Shown here: positions 2,750 to 59,205 of the stretch, piece by piece
Layout: each line of letters begins with the position of its first letter
Position numbering within the stretch: position 1 is the stretch's first letter
Virus record (IMG/VR): IMGVR_UViG_3300030002_000007
Coordinates: 17,479-81,478 of that record
Strand: one strand, 5' to 3'
Source: a virus
DNA: 64,000 bases
Translations under genes and position numbers: made by a program
Notes under the pieces: model-generated
Databases searched by the model: none
The model's input: only the letters and a program-made list of their open reading frames with translations
What the model was told of the DNA's origin: nothing

Positions 2750-3916
2750 TTACTCCTTTACTGGTGAGGGCCAAGGTTTACGATTTCTGAATTTCTGATC
2801 TTCGAGTGCCCAATCGATACCAATGTGATCTTGGGCGAATGGGTGCCACGCTCTCCGACCTGTCCACGAGGTATCTGGATCACTCCAGAACTCATTCAAC
2901 GGACTCAAGCCAAGAGGGAGTAGGAAGAACGCTGTGGCATACAAGCTGCCGGTGCTGATGTAAGAATCTGCGAGGGCTTCATCCACGGACACTAGTCCCG
3001 GTGTCAAGAAGCCTTCTGAGAACATGTGAGGCAGCATCAACTTCAGCGAGGCAGTCAGCGCACATCGAACTGCTGCGGGCCTTATGCCTGTATTTACAAT
3101 GTCACCATGGAGGGCGCCGTAGGCAAGTGCGTAGAAGGCACCGAGCCGATAAACGATTGAACGTCCGATTGCCGGGAAGCTTCCCGTCTCTGAGAACTGG
3201 CGCTCTTGGATTTCGAGGAAGCGCAAATAGCGAGCAACAAACACATCCCCCGTAGCTAAGGCGAAGGCACCCGGTATGGCTTTCATCAAATCTTGGATCG
3301 CCGGATGTACCACGATACTGTTGTAGTAGTTGGAGCTGTACAGTGGGCCATCACCATAGATACCATCTCCAACATAGAAGCCATTGAAGGTGTGGATGGC
3401 TCGACGCACTGCACTCGAATATTGACTGGCGTACGTAATGTCCGTCTCTTGCACGTACAGGAATGCGGTGACCAATGCCTTCTGCAGAATCCAGTTGTTG
3501 TCGTAGACGGGCATCATGTTGACAGACTGCAGCCAATGAACGAACGAGTGCCGTCCGTAAGAGTCCATCGCCTTCCAAAGCTTGGGACTCCGAGTGAACG
3601 CCTGACACAAGTATCCAGCCTCAATCACGCTCTGCTGCTCCAGCGCAGGTCCTCCGCTGTTGAACAGCGCGCGGAGGCATTCAACAGCCGAGTCATAGAG
3701 CTGATGACGCCTACGCAATTCGGTCTCAGTACACACTGGCATCGACAAGTCCGCTTGGAACCAAGGAGCAAGACCGCAGGTGGTTCTCGCAATAGCCTCG
3801 AGCTCAGAGCTTACAGGATTGCCAGTATGCAGCTCCGGCATCTTCGCACCAGAGTAGACTGGGGTTGCCAGCTGGACAGCAAAATTCACCCACAGCTTAC
3901 GTGCTTCATTTCGCAT
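2750..3916 (-). CDS. DUF2264-like protein (putative glycan-acting alpha/alpha barrel)
   Basis: LEAIAR..GLAPW, NNWIL, YVGDGIYGDG, YYNSIVVHP, GRSIVYRLGAF, YISTGSLY; start chosen at MRNEARKLW. Confidence 0.75.
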   Translation of the reverse strand: MRNEARKLWVNFAVQLATPVYSGAKMPELHTGNPVSSELEAIARTTCGLAPWFQADLSMPVCTETELRRRHQLYDSAVECLRALFNSGGPALEQQSVIEAGYLCQAFTRSPKLWKAMDSYGRHSFVHWLQSVNMMPVYDNNWILQKALVTAFLYVQETDITYASQYSSAVRRAIHTFNGFYVGDGIYGDGPLYSSNYYNSIVVHPAIQDLMKAIPGAFALATGDVFVARYLRFLEIQERQFSETGSFPAIGRSIVYRLGAFYALAYGALHGDIVNTGIRPAAVRCALTASLKLMLPHMFSEGFLTPGLVSVDEALADSYISTGSLYATAFFLLPLGLSPLNEFWSDPDTSWTGRRAWHPFAQDHIGIDWALEDQKFRNRKPWPSPVKE

Positions 3917-17794: not shown

Positions 17795-18042
17795 ATACTG
17801 AACTCCTAAATCTTTCTTTGTATGAAATTAGAACTGCTCCCTCAGAATTTACAGTATGAAAGGTTGCGAGAATTCAGTGAGTCTCTGTAATGATGAAGTC
17901 CTCTCTTCTATAAAACAAGCCAGACTGAAAGTGGGTCCGCGCTTGTCCTGACTTGCAGTTGATCCATCGTGTCCGTAGGACATGGACGGATCCGTTCCTC
18001 AAACGTAAGGTAGGCTCCATGACTCAACTGTTCTTGAACCTA

Positions 18043-18291
18043 GGAAGGGTTTGAGGCTTTAGCCTTCGCTCACCCACACGCTACCTCGAAGGGCGGAGCC
18101 CGAAGAGGGTGGGGGAATATCCGGTGCATTGCTGACTAGAAGGATCCGAACCTAAGAGAGATCCGATCCCTACCGCATCCTCAACCTTTACTGAGAAGCA
18201 AGAGCGATCCCTTCCTTACTGAACCGACAATTCCCCCCGAGGGCTCCGCCCTCTGTCGGGGTGATCAAAGGCTAAAGCCTCAAACCCTTCC
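18043..18291. repeat. long nested imperfect inverted repeat (candidate origin or structured RNA)
   Basis: 24-bp perfect outer arms GGAAGGGTTTGAGGCTTTAGCCTT; inner paired blocks TCACCC, AGGGCGGAGCCC, GGGGGAAT. Confidence 0.9.
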
Positions 18292-18349
18292 ATTATTCTT
18301 TTGCGATAGCACTGTGAATGTCCTAGGATTCAAATACTGTAAATTAGGG

Positions 18350-18402
18350 GAAATGAATTGTTATCCATCCACGTTCTATAATAAGCAATGACAATTCATT
18401 TC
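18350..18402. promoter_or_regulatory. 12-bp inverted repeat enclosing a TATAAT box
   Basis: GAAATGAATTGT / ACAATTCATTTC with TATAAT at 18377-18382. Confidence 0.55.
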
Positions 18403-18464
18403 ATTCATTGATCTCAGTACGATTTTGGGGCACAGAACAACACATTTCACAGAGGCGAATAAGC

Positions 18465-44990: not shown

Positions 44991-45079
44991 CTGATGTAGT
45001 GTAGCAAAGAGAGGGAGCTCCGACAGTGACGTCTCCCTCTCGTCGAATTTCATACATTCACCAACCGAGACGTGTTAGT

Positions 45080-45229
45080 GGAGGTGCAGCCATAGGTGTG
45101 ACCACAACGGAGGCGTAGCCGCGAGTCTACGTAAGGCAGGACGGATTGGGAAAGCAGCGTTCACGTTGCGCACCCCCTAGCGGAGCCGTTGCATCTTGCC
45201 GAGTGCTGGTTCGAATCCAGCCACCTCCA
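45080..45229 (+). ncRNA. 150-nt tRNA-like RNA with expanded D and anticodon regions
   Basis: Acceptor GGAGGTG/CACCTCC-A (pairing extends to 14 bp); canonical T arm GCTGG-TTCGAAT-CCAGC. Confidence 0.75.
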
Positions 45230-45258
45230 CTAACATTTTTCCAGAAGGAGAGCACAGC

Positions 45259-53843: not shown

Positions 53844-54074
53844 ATGGCTAAGCTCTATCGGATTCGGACGTCAGACGGCGTGGTGGGATGTATTGCAGCT
53901 ACAAGCGAAGACGTAGCCAGAGCCTACGCGATTGGTAAATACGATGCAGGTGCCGAAGTGGAGCGTGTGACGGTTAAGGCCGCACTTTCCGTTACCGGTG
54001 TCTGTGTCCTAGTATCCAGTCACGTGGTTGTGCATTCGTCCACTACACCAAAGGCCTTCCGGGTCATAGAATGA
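53844..54074 (+). CDS. hypothetical protein
   Basis: Coupled to a 21-aa Lys-rich ORF. Confidence 0.55.
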   Translation: MAKLYRIRTSDGVVGCIAATSEDVARAYAIGKYDAGAEVERVTVKAALSVTGVCVLVSSHVVVHSSTTPKAFRVIE

Positions 54075-54379
54075 CAAGCACCGCGCCAACGCCTAAGCCG
54101 TACTCGACCGCACAGTTCAAGGCTGTGCTTGGCCGATAACGGCTCGAGGCCTACAACTCATATTGATACCTCTCGCATGAGGGGTATGGGTGTTAAGTAC
54201 TACACGCTACATATTACGTCCTAACTTTCGCGTTGGAGTTTCGGCCGGAACGAAAACCAAAGACCTAGGCTAAATTGCTGTAGCTGCGTACTTTTGAAAC
54301 CCACAACTGCTTTACCCGATCTGTCCGAGCGCACATGTCGCATAAAGGTTGATCGATGTTTTTTTAGTGAGGTGCCGTT

Positions 54380-54850
54380 TTGGATATGACTGTGTATCAC
54401 GGAACAGACCTTATGTTCTCTGAGTTCCGTTTCGACGTAGCAGCTCCACCTAATGGCGCAAGCAATGGTTACTTGGGTGTGTGGTTATCGAAAACCCCAA
54501 GGCTAGCCGAGAGATTCGGTCAGTACTGCCTGACAGTCTCAGCGCATGTTGGTCGCACGTATTCTATGCCCCTTACCGAGCTGGTTCGGTTGCATGATGA
54601 AGTACAAAGTCGTGTGCGCCAGCGCAGTGCTGATGCGGATCTAGCTGTTATCGAGCGGGACTTCTACGCAAGCGTGCACATTAAGCTCCTTGGTGGGGGT
54701 TTCGATTTTATCGACATAGTTGAGGATTCAGGTCGGGTACATATGTGCGTTGGGTTGGTTACTGCGAACCTTACCATCCTCAGTCGCACTTCCGATCACG
54801 TAGCCGACCCGACACGTTCGGTTAGGTCGTTAACAGCATTCAACATTTAA
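54380..54850 (+). CDS. ADP-ribosyltransferase-like (H-Y-E clade / ART-PolyVal-like) protein
   Basis: VYHGT..FSEF...GYLGVWLS...AERF...GFD.I. Confidence 0.55.
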   Translation: MDMTVYHGTDLMFSEFRFDVAAPPNGASNGYLGVWLSKTPRLAERFGQYCLTVSAHVGRTYSMPLTELVRLHDEVQSRVRQRSADADLAVIERDFYASVHIKLLGGGFDFIDIVEDSGRVHMCVGLVTANLTILSRTSDHVADPTRSVRSLTAFNI

Positions 54851-54854
54851 GGGC

Positions 54855-54962
54855 GGGCGCTCAGCGTTAGTTCCGAGCCAAGCTGAAGGCTTCAAACATA
54901 ATCCCACAAGAGCCGGAGTGGGAAGCCGGTTGCGAACCCGGTAGACCTCATTTCGAGCGCCC
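54855..54962 (+). ncRNA. putative structured RNA
   Basis: Closing stem GGGCGCTC/GAGCGCCC; hairpins TCCCAC/GTGGGA and GCCGG-TTGCGAAC-CCGGT. Confidence 0.45.
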
Positions 54963-55000
54963 AAGGCATGGCCTACCAGAGCTACTTGGGTGACTAAGGC

Positions 55001-55077
55001 GGCCCCATAGCTTAGTGGTTAGAGCGGCGAGGTGAAAATAGTACTCGTAGACGGAGGTTCGATTCCTCTTGGGGCCG
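55001..55077 (+). tRNA. tRNA-like gene with a 12-nt anticodon loop (Phe-GAA-like or non-decoding)
   Basis: GGCCCCA/TGGGGCC acceptor; D arm GCTT-AGTGGTTA-GAGC; AC stem GCGAG/CTCGT; T arm GGAGG-TTCGATT-CCTCT; no encoded CCA. Confidence 0.75.
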
Positions 55078-55090
55078 CACGAACATTTTG

Positions 55091-55380
55091 AAGTCTTAGG
55101 TCAGCGCCGGCGTGGATTGGACACGCTAAGCACGATGCAGAAACACGGAATTGTCACCGCATGCAAGCTCTGCAATCAACAGGGATGGATTTCCCCAAGA
55201 TAGTCAACTTGCTAGACGCGGCCCTCGGCATTTTACGAGTGCTTCCGAAGCGGGTATTCGACAACTGCGAAGGTGTGTATAGGAAAATTACATGGGCCCT
55301 GTGGACGCACATCCCTGTGGAGGCCGCTGCCTAGTGTGCGGCTGATCGGGTATCAAGCCCCGAGCGCTGACCTAAGACTT
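55091..55380 (+). ncRNA. 290-nt tRNA-scaffolded ncRNA
   Basis: 17-bp perfect terminal stem, D-like hairpin, T-like arm with 8-nt loop, ~200-nt structured insert. Confidence 0.7.
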
Positions 55381-55392
55381 TTTTTGTGGAGT

Positions 55393-55734
55393 ATGGCAAT
55401 GACAATCGTAACCAAAGCAGCAACACCAGATTACCTTTCTGGTCATGAGCGTATTTGGGGCAGCAAGAAGAACAGCCTGATTGATTTCAAGGTGGTCTGT
55501 GATGCCTCTAATCAAGATCCCCTGGATACGGCACCTCAGCCGGTGCGACTTGGAACCAAGGTCATTATTGATGGCGTGCCTAAGGTGTTTACCGAACAAG
55601 AGTGGGTGCCGAGTAAGAAGGAAGAAGTAACTTCGTTCGGTGGGCCGAGTAAGACAATAACCCTCCGCACCGAAGACATATTGCCTCTTCCCACGAGCGC
55701 GGAAGATGGCGTCACCAAGTCGCTGGATGACTAA
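55393..55734 (+). CDS. hypothetical protein
   Basis: ORF coupled to the next gene. Confidence 0.6.
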   Translation: MAMTIVTKAATPDYLSGHERIWGSKKNSLIDFKVVCDASNQDPLDTAPQPVRLGTKVIIDGVPKVFTEQEWVPSKKEEVTSFGGPSKTITLRTEDILPLPTSAEDGVTKSLDD

Positions 55735-56126
55735 TGCGCCTGTGGATGGTTGATCCTCGGTTCATGTGCAGGAAACACTTGTTGGGTGAGCATGTTGAGT
55801 GTCACATGTTCGTCGGCTCCATACTCAAGGGTACGTCGATGAATGGATACTTGGCTGACGGCTTCTTGGAGATCGAGAGCCTTCGCAGCCGCCACGAAGA
55901 ACTTGCAGCTGAGCTAGTGCGTAGGAATTACAACCACGCATCGCCGCTGCCTGATTTCTCAGTGGAACGATTCTCCGTTCACCAACTCACAATTCGTATT
56001 GACCGCAGTAAATCGCTGGCGCTCCTCCATGATCGGTGTCTAGGGTGTGCCACTAACTATAACGTAGGAGACGTTGATGGAGTTATCGAAAGATCACGAA
56101 GGCGCCATAATAAGGGCCTTGGTTGA
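55734..56126 (+). CDS. pyrimidine-dimer DNA glycosylase / T4 endonuclease V-like
   Basis: MRLWMVDP..MCRKHLLGEH.ECH...RHEEL..EL.RR.YNH. Confidence 0.8.
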   Translation: MRLWMVDPRFMCRKHLLGEHVECHMFVGSILKGTSMNGYLADGFLEIESLRSRHEELAAELVRRNYNHASPLPDFSVERFSVHQLTIRIDRSKSLALLHDRCLGCATNYNVGDVDGVIERSRRRHNKGLG

Positions 56127-57048
56127 CGAAGAAGACGGTCTTGACTTTACCGAGCTGTTTGATTCAGCCAACATCTTTGAAGAGCGCCGTGAGCTGTCGA
56201 TGGCCCTTCATGCCATGATTCAGCAAGGCACCGTGTATAAGAGAGGCGAGCAGTATTTCGCCACTGATCTGAGTGCTACTCCGAAGCCTGCAGTCGCTGC
56301 AGCTCAGGAAGCATCCGACGATGACGATGAAGACACAGAGTCCGACGAGGCTGAAAATATTCCTCCGGTGTCGAAGCGCGTTGAGTCTATCAGGGAGGCA
56401 GCAAATCGCATAGCTGCCGCTTCTACTAAGATGCCTCCCAAGTTTCCTGTCCTGAAGCAAGGCAATCTTCGTCGTACAATCGGTAATCAGATCGCCTTCG
56501 TGCTTTATCGCTACCGCAACGAAGACTACAGCCTGCCGGTCTCTCGCATCAAGGACTCCCTCCGGGATCAGCCCACCGGCCTCTATAAGGCGTTGCTCAA
56601 TCTCACTGAGGCTGGGTACATCAAGCGCTTCGGTACCGGCAGGGCCACTTCCTACAAGTGGTCAGGTGAGTACAAGTATCCGTTCGCAGACGTTCGGGCT
56701 GAAGACGAGACGTATTGCAAAATCCTTCCCAAGAGCGAACGGGGTGCCTCGTCGCTGGCGATCTCCATGACTATACCCGGTAAGGTTGAAGCTCCGGCAG
56801 TTGTAGAGACTGATGAAAAGGAAGAGAAGAAGATTCTGTTCATCATTCCTTCTGACCCGGTGGCTGAGTTTCCTGTCACAGCCTCGCAGTCCCTGCCGAC
56901 TTCGCCAGCCAACACTCCGCATTGCTCTCCGAGCCTTGCGGCTATCGATGCACAGATTCAAAGCTGCAAAGAACATCTTAGCTTCCTGCAAGAGCTTCGA
57001 GCAACCATGCTTCGTGAGTTGTGTGCTCCCTGCAAGAAGTCCGCGTAG
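56077..57048 (+). CDS. hypothetical protein with two probable winged-helix domains
   Basis: LHAMIQQGTVYK and LLNLTEAGYIKR patterns. Confidence 0.65.
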   Translation: MELSKDHEGAIIRALVDEEDGLDFTELFDSANIFEERRELSMALHAMIQQGTVYKRGEQYFATDLSATPKPAVAAAQEASDDDDEDTESDEAENIPPVSKRVESIREAANRIAAASTKMPPKFPVLKQGNLRRTIGNQIAFVLYRYRNEDYSLPVSRIKDSLRDQPTGLYKALLNLTEAGYIKRFGTGRATSYKWSGEYKYPFADVRAEDETYCKILPKSERGASSLAISMTIPGKVEAPAVVETDEKEEKKILFIIPSDPVAEFPVTASQSLPTSPANTPHCSPSLAAIDAQIQSCKEHLSFLQELRATMLRELCAPCKKSA

Positions 57049-57078
57049 CATTTCGGTGGTAGTTTAAGTTAAAACAGC

Positions 57079-57518
57079 GAGTAGGGCCGCGTAGCAACCG
57101 CGGGTCACTGGGCCTAACAGGCCAGGCATCGAAAAGATGCGTGATGCGATTACGTGGTAGGCCGAGGCTATGTCAGTATCGAATCTGGTCCACCGACCCA
57201 TTTTTGTAATCCGGCTCGTTTGTAGTGTGTCGTTCTTTCACAACGCGCATTTACGCGGAGCTTGTAGCCTCCTGTTGGCTGGTATATCTGACAGGGTCTC
57301 GCTACTAGTTCTTCGATTGTTGGCAGGTGCCGGATTGCAAGTCGTATGTTCCCTGCCAGCAACTCCCTTTCAAAGCTAGAACGTCGGAATCGTTTTTCAC
57401 GTACGGTCCGGCAGTAACTCCGCTAGTAATATACCTAACAACTCATCGCCATCTTTGCCTGCCGGTCCACACCGGCGGCCGCGTGCGAAACACGAGCCTC
57501 GGAGTTACAACCCTATTC
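57079..57518 (+). ncRNA. putative large (~440 nt) multi-stem ncRNA
   Basis: Non-coding gap packed with hairpins and long-range complementarities. Confidence 0.6.
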
Positions 57519-57615
57519 TACTCATCCGAGTAACACTGTAAATACTGTAGATAACAATTAGAAAGGAGGAACTCGTAAATGGGTGTCCTCCTTTCTCGCA
57601 TTGTGGTTTCCGAAA

Positions 57616-57786
57616 ATGCAAACGCGCTGTGCCACCTGTAACGTAAAACTGACGAACAAAGAACTCTCGGCAGGTACCATCTTCTGTACGCCCTGTACTC
57701 ATACTTGGTGGGCTACAGCCCACGCCATCTACTACCGCAAACTTCCAAAGGAACTCAAGCATGACCTCGACCCACCTATGGGGTGA
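57616..57786 (+). CDS. small Zn-finger-like protein
   Basis: CATC...CTPC. Confidence 0.5.
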   Translation: MQTRCATCNVKLTNKELSAGTIFCTPCTHTWWATAHAIYYRKLPKELKHDLDPPMG

Positions 57787-58369
57787 ATGTCCCGTCGGCA
57801 CTGCCGATGCAGACGAGACCCAAGCTATCACCTTCGCATTGTTTGACTTCCTAGAGCTCAATAAGGACACACCCGTTGCCCTGATCGACATTGATGGTGT
57901 TGTGCTCAACAACAATCACAGGCTTCACCACATCGTCGAGACAGGTGCAGATGGGAAGCAACGTCCTCGATCTGACCCTGACTGGAAAGCGTTCCACGCA
58001 GCCGCGCATCTCGACACTCCCGGTGTGTTTGCACCGATAGTGAGAGACCTAATTATCGGGCAGTACTATCCGATCTTCCTCACGGCACGCGTTGAGATTT
58101 GGGACACCACGAGATCCAACTTGGTCCAGATGCTCAGTGCTGCTATTCAGTACCCTATCGACCCGCGCTTCATCATTCTCCGTGATCGAGACTCTTCGTG
58201 GCCTGCCGACAAGTTCAAGGCCCACATCGTCAGCCAGATGATTATGCGTGGTATCAAGATCGGAGTAGCACTCGATGACTCTCACGCCAACTGCCAAGCG
58301 TATCGGCTAATGGGCATCCCTGTTCTCCGGGCATACAATCATCTACGCGAAGACGCGTTGGAGTACTGA
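57761..58369 (+). CDS. HAD-family phosphatase (Pnkp phosphatase-like)
   Basis: IDIDGV, FLTAR, FK, LDD. Confidence 0.8.
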   Translation: MTSTHLWGECPVGTADADETQAITFALFDFLELNKDTPVALIDIDGVVLNNNHRLHHIVETGADGKQRPRSDPDWKAFHAAAHLDTPGVFAPIVRDLIIGQYYPIFLTARVEIWDTTRSNLVQMLSAAIQYPIDPRFIILRDRDSSWPADKFKAHIVSQMIMRGIKIGVALDDSHANCQAYRLMGIPVLRAYNHLREDALEY

Positions 58370-58370
58370 C

Positions 58371-58871
58371 ATGACACTTGACGACGTGATCGTAGTCACC
58401 AACAACCTTGACTATGCTTCTGAAAAAGAGCTTGAGGTAGTGTATGTAGTCGGCAAGAACTCCACACCACAAGACATTAAACTCATGCGCTCGGCGATCC
58501 TTGAGTTGTGGAGAATAGCTGAGAGCCTTCCATACTGTACTTGGTACGGGCTCTACGGGTTGCAACGCGGTGTCCTGAACATTGTAGCTGAGAGTCGAGT
58601 TGCGGTATGGACAGAGTACGATATGGACTATGCCATTATGCGAGGCTTGAACCCCGTGCGGTTCTTTACCGGATATGGCCTAGTTCTTTGGAGTGCCGAA
58701 GTCCGAGCCTTCGACAAGCCCTTGATCCAAACTCCAGTGCGCCCTAGCTACACGGGTGACACCTGGCTCACAAACATGGCCTCAGTAGGAACCTTAAAGG
58801 GCCGTGGTGTTATTTTCAACCCTATCAACATCAGAGAGGCCACAAATGAAACTCCTGCGCAACATACCTGA
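58371..58871 (+). CDS. hypothetical protein
   Basis: Coupled ORF. Confidence 0.6.
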   Translation: MTLDDVIVVTNNLDYASEKELEVVYVVGKNSTPQDIKLMRSAILELWRIAESLPYCTWYGLYGLQRGVLNIVAESRVAVWTEYDMDYAIMRGLNPVRFFTGYGLVLWSAEVRAFDKPLIQTPVRPSYTGDTWLTNMASVGTLKGRGVIFNPINIREATNETPAQHT

Positions 58872-59205
58872 ACGCAAAGGCCGTTGTAAGTACGCACTGA
58901 TACGGCTCGACAAACTCGGCCTCTCTGACACACAGATCGGCAACATGACTCTGACTGAATTGCTCTTCTGTCTAAGCTCTACTCCACGGGCAGATGGCAC
59001 CAAGCTCGAAGACCTGATCGAGTTCGGTGAGCCCGGTTCCGAGAACGAATTCTTCACTGTCAAGCTCAAGGATCGCAACAGTCCTGCGGCCTTGGCTGCG
59101 TACAGTGGCCGCATTCACGCGAAAGATCCCGGGATGGCCGATGACGTTTTCCAGCTCATTGAGAGAGCCGGACAGAATCACCTTTCCTGCAAAGACCCGG
59201 ACTAA
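58846..59205 (+). CDS. hypothetical phage protein
   Basis: KYALIR...EFFTVKLKD...AALAAY. Confidence 0.65.

Follow-up and report, generated by a model that had tools for sequence, protein, structure and literature searches.

The locus and its gene neighbourhood

The element analyzed here lies in a peat-derived phage record of IMG/VR (81.5 kb), the source of which is an uncultured T4-like jumbo phage; coordinates refer to the window, the 64,000-nt stretch of this record submitted to analysis. A preliminary description of the window had placed at 57079-57518 an ornate non-coding RNA candidate of about 440 nt with a tRNA-like subdomain. This segment falls within a true non-coding, gene-free gap of ~530 nt (57049-57582), which on the plus strand extends from the upstream stop codon to the next promoter-like motif (57049-57536) and ranks among the record's four longest stretches without a gene call. 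The gap has a GC content of 0.539; it is not AT-rich, and its composition is unlike that of a plain promoter spacer.

The gene upstream of the gap (56074-57048, plus strand) encodes a 324-aa ORFan with a codon log-odds of 0.19, typical for the genes of this phage. The protein has no PHROG match and no Pfam match above the cutoff, yields no match by tblastn against 50,697 phage records and, in a set of 5.8 billion proteins, retrieves only itself, on five contigs. Its nearest Atlas clusters are DUF1627/wHTH (0.88-0.89, under the 0.9 line) and, as a lead only, it may be a winged-helix DNA-binding protein. The downstream gene (57761-58369, plus strand) encodes a 202-aa HAD/polynucleotide-kinase-phosphatase (PNK)-like protein (phrog_415, E 1.4e-14; 22.9 bits against PF25109, below the cutoff of 27.6). 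All the genes neighbouring the gap are on the plus strand. The sole tRNA called with default settings (55001-55078) lies 2 kb upstream of the element, and ORFs 55273-55734, 55734-56126 and 56074-57048 stand between it and the gap.

The 3' bound of the element is set by TGTAAATA (57537-57544, plus strand), a T4-late-like promoter motif that recurs in this phage. There are 11 such sites in the window against 0.48 expected, a number reached by none of 100 shuffles; all are co-oriented with genes, and TGTAAATA is the top enriched intergenic 8-mer. K-mer enrichment gave only TGTAAATA and SD-like words, and a dedicated promoter motif at the 5' end of the element was rejected. A scan of 54000-59000 detected no promoter-like site on the plus strand of the gap and no terminator-like site on that strand within 57049-57579, and the ATTTTT at 57200-57205 is preceded by a mere 4-bp GGTC/GACC hairpin, short of an intrinsic terminator.

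Comparison with tRNAs and known RNA families

The proposed tRNA-like subdomain (57102-57200) was not recovered by any of the methods used. Its "T-like arm" (57174-57187) is composed of a 3-bp CAG/CTG stem, or 5 bp if two G·U pairs are counted, and an 8-nt loop, TATCGAAT, as opposed to the 5-bp stem and 7-nt TΨC-type loop of a T arm. The Infernal tRNA model RF00005 returned nothing in 57040-57610 at E<=10, and an Infernal scan of 54500-58000 found nothing tRNA-like in 57049-57579. ARAGORN called no tRNA in the gap by default; with lowered thresholds and introns allowed, it made five calls in the record, none of them in the gap. The likeness that had been drawn to an element at 55.3 kb is likewise not reflected in sequence similarity, which is absent. 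With Infernal and ARAGORN both negative over 57049-57579, a tRNA derivative was rejected, and the gap is best read as neither a gene nor a derivative of a tRNA.

The preliminary description had been unable to assign the element to a family, and the Rfam scan agrees. At the gathering score, Rfam 15 yielded no family except the tRNA at 55001. When the element alone was searched with 4227 Rfam 15 models at E<=10, the sole match was that of an SD string to caiA (E 9.8).

Complementary segments and local folds

Recomputation located all the complementary pairs listed for the element at the positions given, within 1 nt, on the plus strand. The ends of the element pair through GAGTAGGG (57079-57086) and CCCTATTC (57511-57518), with one G·U, and the serial hairpins CCGCG/CGCGG (57087-57091/57099-57103), GGCCT/AGGCC (57111-57115/57119-57123) and GCATC/GATGC (57126-57130/57136-57140) are all found in the sequence as complementary segments, as is the closing pair GGGTC/GACCC (57102-57106/57195-57199), although its reported end at 57200 is off by one. 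The pairs CCGAGGCT/AGCCTCGG (57162-57169/57495-57502) and CCGGCAG/CTGCCGG (57408-57414/57459-57465) and the 9-bp stem C, GTAACTCCG/CGGAGTTAC (57414-57422/57500-57508), are also present. An internal duplication relating the stem-C domain to the domain of stem A (described below) was considered and rejected (global alignment score 7, shuffle mean 7.3).

These helices have to be weighed against the possibility that the gap is an ordinary intergenic spacer, in which the untranslated tail of the upstream unit, possibly including a C-rich stretch for Rho loading, leads into the TGTAAATA promoter and the leader hairpin of the downstream unit, and the helices arise by chance, with no selected fold. 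Several features of the element agree with this possibility. Some of the listed helices are mutually exclusive, because CGCGG and GGGTC overlap at 57102-57103, because 57500-57502 are common to the AGCCTCGG and CGGAGTTAC helices, and because 57414 is common to those of CCGGCAG and GTAACTCCG. The element has 10 stems of at least 8 bp with at most one G·U, whereas 369 windows of 440 nt taken from the genome average 5.5, and 8.1% of them have at least 10. The long-range 7-9-bp pairs thus exist, but they occur at chance frequency in genome windows and do not constitute evidence of structure. Furthermore, the GC skew is -0.14 to -0.33 over 57350-57529, so that RNA from this part of the gap would be C-rich.

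The folding energy of the whole element leads to a similar assessment. Its minimum free energy (MFE) is -155.5 kcal/mol (z -2.75), and 1 of 100 dinucleotide shuffles folds as well. This departure from shuffled controls is, however, equaled or exceeded by 24 of the 369 native windows of the same genome (30 of 369 after GC correction), and the GC-corrected residual (z = -1.33) denotes an ordinary MFE for this genome, again as expected of a spacer. The minus strand folds nearly as well (z -2.09 against shuffles).

Locally, stable folds are present in the element. The predicted fold would consist of three blocks, all on the plus strand: short hairpins on the 5' side, then a central domain with the 12-13-bp stem A at its base, and on the 3' side a domain that the 9-bp stem C closes. 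The 5' block (57053-57199) comprises hairpins at 57087-57103, 57108-57125 and 57126-57140, is followed by ATTTTT, and may be closed by either 57053-57059/57190-57196 or GGGTC/GACCC; the corresponding 150-nt fold (57050-57199) is not significant (z -1.71; 12 of 200 shuffles as good). The fold of 57200-57349, around the stem-A domain, reaches -51.6 kcal/mol (z -2.79), a value matched by 2 of 200 shuffles. The 3' domain (57414-57508), with inner hairpins at 57459-57466/57471-57478 and 57481-57493, falls in a window (57380-57529) with z -2.47 and 4 of 200 shuffles as good, and the intervening fold of 57300-57449 is not significant (z -0.95).

A separate 150-nt scan gave z -3.1, -3.45 and -3.0 for windows starting at 57200, 57450 and 57500, against a background of 117 windows with mean z -0.25, standard deviation 1.22 and a 5th percentile of -2.55. 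The significant 57450-57599 window owes part of its score to the leader hairpin, which is outside the element and is in this respect in line with a spacer. Against a spacer, seven gaps were compared and the mean local z is lowest in this one (-1.46), and some 490 nt devoid of function would be unusual in a genome with a coding density of ~87% (crude call).

Two long crossing stems

The preliminary description had pointed to a 12-bp stem crossed by a second helix. Both are present, the combination is statistically unusual, and it needs the plus strand. Stem A (57204-57215/57329-57340) has 12 bp with one U·G, or 13 bp counting 57203·57341, and a duplex energy of -19.7; it closes a domain (57203-57341) with branched hairpins inside. 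Stem B (57317-57327/57352-57362) has 11 bp, one of them U·G, and forms a hairpin (57317-57362) with a 24-nt loop. Since this loop contains the 3' strand of stem A, the core can be modeled as an H-type pseudoknot or as a two-state switch. In the H-type geometry the two stems would be separated by a 1-nt junction, with a first loop of 101 nt carrying its own hairpins and a third loop of 11 nt. Forced separately on 57198-57366, A and B are near-isoenergetic (-51.9 and -50.4 kcal/mol, from nested folding only).

Of the 369 genome windows, 6 contain two or more stems of at least 11 bp, as do 2 of 300 shuffles, and a crossing pair with a 1-nt junction is unique to A/B across both strands of the 81.5-kb record. 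One such pair occurs in 3 of 100 block-shuffled genomes, a proportion that understates the true chance rate, given that the criterion was fixed post hoc, after the A/B pair was seen, and that long stems are ~1.7 times more frequent in the real genome than in shuffles (61 versus ~36). Stems A and B and the terminal stem each rely on one G·U that is possible only on the plus strand, and the longest stems of the minus strand have 9 bp. This dependence in the long stems fits selection on RNA better than it fits a DNA palindrome. The uniqueness of the crossing pair in the record, its rarity in shuffles and the strand-specificity of the long stems all speak against a spacer. The A/B crossing stems are the one standout feature of the element and are worth testing.

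Presence in an RNA library and search for relatives

The element is present in an RNA library. A 274-nt contig of a peat metatranscriptome (run X23, record 12) covers 57218-57491 with no differences from the phage and a depth of 13.8; it is a single contig from one library, it gives neither the strand nor the boundaries of the transcript, and DNA carry-over could account for it. The contigs of run X23 have depth in 6 of 30 bins, which leaves the tRNA region uncovered, as well as the remainder of the gap, but is not proof of their silence, and contig depths of 13.8, 7.1 and 4.7 provide no basis for an expression ranking. DNA contigs from runs X6, X13 and X16 show no differences inside the element, and record 21 of X6 spans 56879-57922 with none. 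The strains being identical inside the element, strain variation yields no covariation. All 24 runs carry the label peat metagenome; they may belong to one campaign, and the run that holds the phage DNA best may be the sample from which the record came.

Relatives of the element were looked for by sequence and by gene context. Using 11-base words, blastn matched 57049-57579 to none of 50,697 phage records, and no paralog was found within the phage's own genome. Scans of IMG/VR contigs with the PNK-like protein, the 324-aa ORF and the DNA polymerase, each taken singly, revealed no relative. A scan with a dCTP-deaminase-like protein retrieved 22 jumbo-phage loci, which do not share the other genes of the 52.9-63.1 kb neighbourhood except for one weak match in L011; neither nhmmer nor blastn found the element in these loci, and in their whole records the best match (E 0.045 over 29 nt) was noise. 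With the PNK-like protein as anchor, alignment identified 21 loci in metagenomes (the best 43% and 41% identical), one IMG/VR locus (40%) and none in species genomes, and nhmmer and blastn again did not detect the element. In two of these loci (L052 and L025, with PNK-like genes 40-41% identical), ORFs abut the PNK-like gene, leaving no comparable gap, and no tRNAs were found. Closer PNK-like proteins, 44-60% identical (P0002-P0005, from ENA and Logan), are encoded on contigs of up to 17.8 kb.

A single-sequence covariance model of 57198-57366, run without a positive control, produced no match at E<=1 in 23 records. An exact 20-mer of the pseudoknot core had no matches in IMG/VR and one in a 3.06-Mb contig of an Acidobacteriaceae MAG. 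The latter was rejected as a relative or CRISPR spacer: its flanks are unrelated, 451 nt around it hold no repeat array, and about one match is expected by chance in 596 billion bases (an estimate). No homolog having been found in the collections searched, covariation gives no evidence either way.

A lineage-specific structured RNA as the leading interpretation

We consider that the gap is most plausibly a lineage-specific, plus-strand structured RNA segment between the ORFan gene and the T4-late-like TGTAAATA promoter, a reading to which we assign a probability of roughly 40%. An ordinary spacer, also supported by the lack of an Rfam family, of a homolog and of a promoter or terminator of the element's own, is a possible alternative and nearly as likely.

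Because the gap has no plus-strand promoter-like site of its own, a structured RNA would most likely arise when transcription of the upstream ORFan gene reads through its end and gives the transcript a long 3' extension; trimming might then leave a stable RNA of about 300-440 nt. Its core would be a coaxial H-type pseudoknot of ~23 bp or an A/B two-state switch. As a guess, such an RNA might act as a nuclease-resistant 3' end and insulate the upstream unit from the late-type promoter at 57537, and a role in trans is also conceivable. Strand, read-through, processing and function are here what we infer for the element.

A more ambitious version of this reading is doubtful. In it, the element would found a new lineage-restricted class of large phage ncRNA, in which a plus-strand RNA of ~300-440 nt, with a ~23-bp coaxial A/B pseudoknot and two flanking stem-closed domains, accumulates during infection of peat bacteria and acts in trans, for instance decoying a defence protein or a nuclease of the host, instead of serving as a passive 3' tail.

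The case for a structured RNA rests on one genome. If correct, it would add another long structured RNA, from an uncultured T4-like peat jumbo phage, to the known set and would offer a compact pseudoknot core to probe. Relative to the preliminary description, the analysis removes the tRNA-like claim, separates out the features that occur at chance level and isolates the A/B crossing stems.

Coding potential of the gap

The gap could alternatively hold a decayed gene, or at least one unrecognised small gene with foreign codon usage. Its GC resembles that of coding DNA, and ORFs of 69, 68, 64 and 45 aa are present, the last of which (57064-57201, minus strand) has a codon score of 0.064, at the 12th percentile of true gene chunks. 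Nevertheless, every 150-nt frame window in 57075-57525 scores at most 0.05, compared to 0.19-0.32 for the flanking genes, so that no frame carries a codon signal. None of the four ORFs matches a PHROG or Pfam family, the 69-aa ORF is missing, even as itself, from the 5.8-billion protein set (which is based on gene calls), and tblastn found no match in phages for the ORFs of 68 and 64 aa. The 69-aa ORF has a GAGG just 2 nt ahead of its ATG, and the 45-aa ORF runs against its neighbours, all of which are on the plus strand. We thus regard a gene in the gap as unlikely, and concur with the preliminary description that 57079-57518 is non-coding.

DNA-level and antisense alternatives

A DNA-level element, composed of binding sites for the wHTH-like ORFan (operator- or partition-like) or of an inverted-repeat origin or recombination site, appears similarly improbable. 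The resemblance of the upstream ORF to wHTH/DUF1627 clusters, itself only a lead, would suit such an element, as would the recurrence of related words in both orientations: TTGTAATCCGG at 57204, TTGCAATCCGG on the minus strand at 57330-57340 and TTGTAACTCCG on the minus strand at 57500-57510. These words are, however, not enriched in the genome beyond this locus, and a genome-wide operator motif was rejected, TTGYAATCCGG having 29 matches against 26.4 expected. The direct-repeat families consist of 2-3 copies of 9-20 nt with irregular spacing, and GC remains at 0.45-0.65 throughout 57050-57499; with neither an iteron array nor an AT-rich unwinding stretch, an iteron-type replication origin was also rejected. 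Moreover, the long stems need G·U pairs that are broken on the minus strand and that a DNA palindrome would not favour, and the clear nested-palindrome region of the record is located elsewhere, in the 17795-18407 gap.

An antisense RNA, starting near 57508 from a candidate sigma-70-like promoter on the minus strand (TTTACA-16-TAGAAT, 57542 to 57515) and running leftwards through the element, is equally hard to sustain, for even though this promoter matches at 10 of 12 positions, the right end of the RNA-library contig (57491) is close to the predicted start and the minus strand folds below its shuffles, promoter-like matches occur here at chance frequency (3 found, 3.5 expected), the -35 hexamer is the reverse complement of TGTAAATA, the only minus-strand terminator-like site (57090-57074) has a weak stem of five pairs, three of them G-C, the long stems vanish on that strand, and contig ends differ from transcript ends.

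Comparison with known phage RNA structures

To our knowledge, phages seldom encode long structured RNAs of the GOLLD or ROOL kind, whose functions have yet to be worked out. The element shares several traits with ROOL and GOLLD: it is a large non-coding segment of phage DNA, several hundred nucleotides long, its domains are multistem and its pairings of pseudoknot type, and tRNA genes are present in the genome around it. In contrast to them, it matches none of the 4227 models of Rfam 15 as such a family, a set that we take to include the models of both, and, having no homolog family, it has no known conserved architecture. An ornate RNA in their sense calls for an architecture that is conserved and covaries across many genomes. 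GOLLD and ROOL are often near tRNAs and in prophages, according to PMC5737381. The nearest default-called tRNA is 2 kb from the element, with three ORFs between, and its carrier is a peat jumbo phage of the virulent type rather than a prophage.

T4 RNAC and RNAD resemble the element as phage-encoded non-coding RNAs of unknown role from a tRNA neighbourhood of a T4-type genome, but the element is not adjacent to a tRNA, has no tRNA-like fold and is several times longer. H-type pseudoknots occur in phage and viral RNAs, for example in the leader of T4 gene 32 mRNA. The A/B pair shares their order of arms (1-5', 2-5', 1-3', 2-3'), and its 1-nt junction would allow coaxial stacking. It differs from the gene 32-type pseudoknot in that its fold is predicted, its stems are far longer (12 and 11 bp) and its first loop spans 101 nt with hairpins, and the element is not the leader of a known autoregulated gene.

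A counterpart in T4 also exists for the leader hairpin at 57560-57596 (plus strand), which is outside the element and is part of the downstream unit. This hairpin is a perfect 11-bp inverted repeat, forms 15 pairs when 57450-57599 is folded (z -3.21) and sequesters an SD sequence, burying AGGAGG, with the ATG of a 20-codon ORF (57579) in the loop and 3' arm. Hairpins that sequester the SD and AUG are described for the T4 genes e, soc, 49 and I-TevI in PMC3014915. The present arrangement differs in that the promoter motif lies 16 nt upstream of the hairpin, so that a late transcript would probably keep both arms, on the assumption that the start-site spacing at the 57537 promoter follows that of T4. 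The burial of AGGAGG and ATG downstream of a late-type promoter motif likens the 57560-57596 hairpin to these cases, a likeness that concerns the adjacent leader and not the element.

Genomic setting and possible transcription

The source IMG/VR virus record comprises 81,478 bases, with a CheckV completeness of 34%, and all 24 of the 24 public runs holding the locus are labelled peat metagenome. PHROG matches in the window include a DNA polymerase, two topoisomerase II subunits, a Dda-like helicase, an NAD-dependent ligase, an SbcD-like nuclease, an endonuclease V, a dCTP-deaminase-like protein and a polynucleotide-kinase-like (PNK-like) phosphatase, a repertoire resembling those of T4-type and jumbo phages. 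The - strand carries the genes up to about 17.8 kb, the + strand those beyond 18.4 kb. The candidate RNA element (57079-57518) fills the space from the stop codon of a 324-aa ORF (56074-57048, + strand) to the next promoter-like motif (57537-57544); past 57048, credible coding signal resumes only at 57579/57607, ahead of the PNK-like gene (57761-58369, + strand).

Three contigs from an RNA-labelled peat metatranscriptome (56213-56446, 57218-57491 and 58305-58487) matched the 54500-59000 region with 0 differences, placing part of the element in an RNA library together with pieces of the flanking genes. These contigs, which give neither strand, ends nor a reliable level and could reflect DNA carry-over, provide a weak hint of transcription. 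The DNA runs compared presented zero variants inside the element.

Four relatives of the PNK-like protein, 44-60% identical to it, occur in ENA and Logan assemblies. In JGI metagenomes, IMG/VR and species genomes, scans based on an alignment recovered relatives only at 43% identity or less, and these had no gap 5' of the gene and no similarity to the element. Likewise, 22 jumbo-phage records found via the dCTP-deaminase-like gene showed no shared synteny and no match to the element by DNA or covariance model.

Folding of the element compared with chance

The complementarities listed in the preliminary description are all present within 1 nt of their positions, but in three cases two of the helices overlap and hence exclude each other. 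Its proposed comparison with shuffled sequences, run on the whole element, gave z -2.75 for the + strand fold (-155.5 kcal/mol, 1/100 shuffles as good) and z -2.09 for the - strand fold (-153.1 kcal/mol, 3/100). Shuffles are a lenient control, however: when the record itself was cut into 369 windows of 440 nt, 24 of them folded as well or better, or 30 after regression on GC (element residual z -1.33). The element holds 10 stems of at least 8 bp (at most one G·U) versus a window mean of 5.5; since about 8% of windows hold as many, the long-range pairs of 7-9 bp carry no weight as evidence.

Of the local folds, those of 57200-57349 (z -2.79) and 57380-57529 (z -2.47) reached significance, and those of 57050-57199 (z -1.71) and 57300-57449 (z -0.95) did not. 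Over 150-nt windows, the gap around the element (about 57049-57579) has the lowest mean z of seven gaps (-1.46, with 2 of 8 windows below -3; other gaps +0.34 to -1.28), against a background of -0.25 ± 1.22 (117 windows). An exact 10-nt direct repeat, CCGCGTAGCA, occurs at 57041-57050, spanning the upstream gene's stop codon, and at 57087-57096, as the first hairpin arm of the element; about 0.2 such repeats per 700 nt are estimated by chance.

A rare pair of crossing stems

The 12-bp stem A (57204-57215/57329-57340) and the 11-bp stem B (57317-57327/57352-57362), each with one U·G pair, cross in H-type order on the + strand; their junction measures 1 nt and the third loop 11 nt. Two stems of at least 11 bp occurred in 6/369 native windows and 2/300 shuffles. 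A scan of the whole record on both strands, with spans up to 220 nt, yielded 61 stems of at least 11 bp, among which A and B form the only crossing pair of this kind. At least one such pair appeared in 3 of 100 block-shuffled genomes, a figure somewhat below the true chance rate because the criterion was defined after the pair was seen and the real genome holds about 1.7 times as many long stems as the shuffles.

No stem of the - strand is longer than 9 bp, since G·U pairs turn into A·C there, and this loss of the long stems favors a + strand RNA over a DNA palindrome. The preliminary description had left open a pseudoknot or a switch; in nested folding of 57198-57366, A and B are near-isoenergetic alternatives (-51.9 versus -50.4 kcal/mol), and a switch would be as possible as a pseudoknot. 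Bases 57320-57339 have an exact 20-nt match, with unrelated flanks, at 3111-3130 of a 3.06-Mb Acidobacteriaceae MAG contig (L053); with no repeat array in the 451 nt examined, it was judged a chance match rather than a CRISPR spacer or relative.

A putative read-through RNA and its alternatives

This non-coding, locally stable gap, with its rare, + strand-specific crossing stems and its presence in an RNA library, is tentatively read (probability about 0.4) as a structured RNA segment of the + strand, produced when transcription of the upstream gene reads through; we infer its biogenesis and function as follows. No site resembling a promoter or a terminator lies on the + strand of the gap, and the element would be transcribed from upstream. 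Its fold would comprise a cluster of hairpins, a domain closed by stem A and interlocked with hairpin B, and a 3' domain (57414-57508) closed by the 9-bp stem C. It could act as a protective or insulating 3' structure ahead of the probable late-type promoter, and trimming might turn it into a stable RNA.

A somewhat less probable explanation is a plain spacer with chance helices, possibly including a C-rich Rho-loading stretch, consistent with the GC skew of -0.14 to -0.33 over 57350-57529. A bolder reading, and an unlikely one, would place the element in a new class of phage RNAs that act in trans and have a long coaxial pseudoknot at their core.

A DNA-level site for the neighboring 324-aa protein is a minor alternative. 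This protein is an ORFan for which the searches recovered no sequence relative but itself, on 5 contigs; its nearest Atlas clusters are DUF1627/wHTH, at 0.88-0.89, and its winged-helix likeness is a lead only. The gap, however, holds no iterons and no AT-rich stretch. By eye, the ORFan seems to consist of two winged-helix-type segments, an acidic linker and, at its C terminus, a coiled-coil-like tail.

A small decayed or foreign gene is likewise a minor possibility; the gap is taken to be non-coding, as the preliminary description proposed. With a codon log-odds score trained on 66 of the record's long ORFs (in-frame 66-codon chunks, n=269, mean 0.198, 5th percentile 0.02; wrong-frame chunks, n=1345, mean -0.351), zero 150-nt windows in six frames of 57075-57525 exceeded 0.05, and the genes flanking the gap scored 0.19-0.32. 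Gap ORFs of 69, 68 and 64 aa scored -0.154, -0.02 and -0.099, and a 45-aa ORF on the - strand 0.064, the 12th percentile of true chunks; none of the four had a PHROGs match at E<=1 or a meaningful one in Pfam. The 69-aa ORF is missing from a 5.8-billion protein set, its own copy included, which means that it was not called as a gene on any contig, and tblastn of the 68- and 64-aa ORFs against phages returned nothing at E<=1. An antisense RNA from a sigma-70-like site is also minor, that site being at chance level.

Relationship to tRNAs and known phage RNAs

A tRNA-like subdomain (57102-57200) with a T-like arm, proposed previously, was rejected: the Rfam tRNA model matched only the gene at 55001-55077, and a search of the element by itself at E<=10 gave no tRNA match; ARAGORN returned nothing there at default thresholds or at lowered thresholds with introns allowed; and the arm consists of a 3-bp stem and an 8-nt loop. 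The supposed likeness to the 55.3-kb element also failed, local alignment with it and nine other gaps not rising above shuffles.

The only default tRNA call (55001-55078) has an oversized anticodon loop. ARAGORN reads it by default as tRNA-Ile(aat) and, once introns are permitted, as tRNA-Phe(gaa) carrying a 5-nt insert at position 38; in Infernal it reaches 57.1 bits with 8 loop bases unaligned. One DNA run carries C>A at 55075, in its acceptor 3' strand (one contig, depth 4.1). Directly 3' of this tRNA, 55091-55380 has a perfect 17-bp terminal stem (55091-55107/55364-55380) followed by seven T, unremarkable 150-nt folding (z -1.35 to +0.69) and no sequence similarity to the 57-kb element. 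Upstream, a 156-aa ORF (54380-54850) weakly matches the Pfam ADP-ribosyltransferase domain ART-PolyVal (E 8.3e-4; 20.6 bits, below the cutoff of 31.2). At lowered thresholds with introns allowed, ARAGORN also called 45068-45230 as a tRNA-Ala(cgc) carrying a 68-nt insert at position 34, a call made neither by default ARAGORN nor by Rfam at gathering score.

ROOL and GOLLD are described as large, multistem, pseudoknotted, phage-associated RNAs often near tRNAs (PMC5737381). The element recalls both in size and setting, but has no family of its own and, in keeping with the earlier failure to assign one, no Rfam model match. It also recalls RNAs C and D of the T4 tRNA region, whose roles are given as unknown (PMC3014915), but it neither adjoins a tRNA nor is tRNA-like. 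If real, it would be a new single-genome member of a loose kind, the large structured phage RNA of unknown function.

A probable late-type promoter motif and a downstream leader hairpin

The promoter-like 8-mer TGTAAATA (57537-57544, + strand) is the top enriched intergenic 8-mer, with 11 sites in the window (3091, 8284, 15749, 22492, 24887, 37697, 37804, 38098, 51963, 53643 and 57537) versus 0.48 expected, a count reached by 0/100 shuffles, and 4 further sites in the record before the window start. Every site has the orientation of the genes. The motif, which resembles the T4 late promoter TATAAATA and differs from it by one base, is probably the phage's late-type promoter. Downstream, a 15-pair hairpin (57560-57596) buries AGGAGG and the ATG (57579) of a 20-codon ORF, and this arrangement (57560-57641) may control translation of the downstream unit. 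The 20-codon ORF shares sequence with the start region of a Cys-rich ORF of 59-67 aa (57583/57607-57786).
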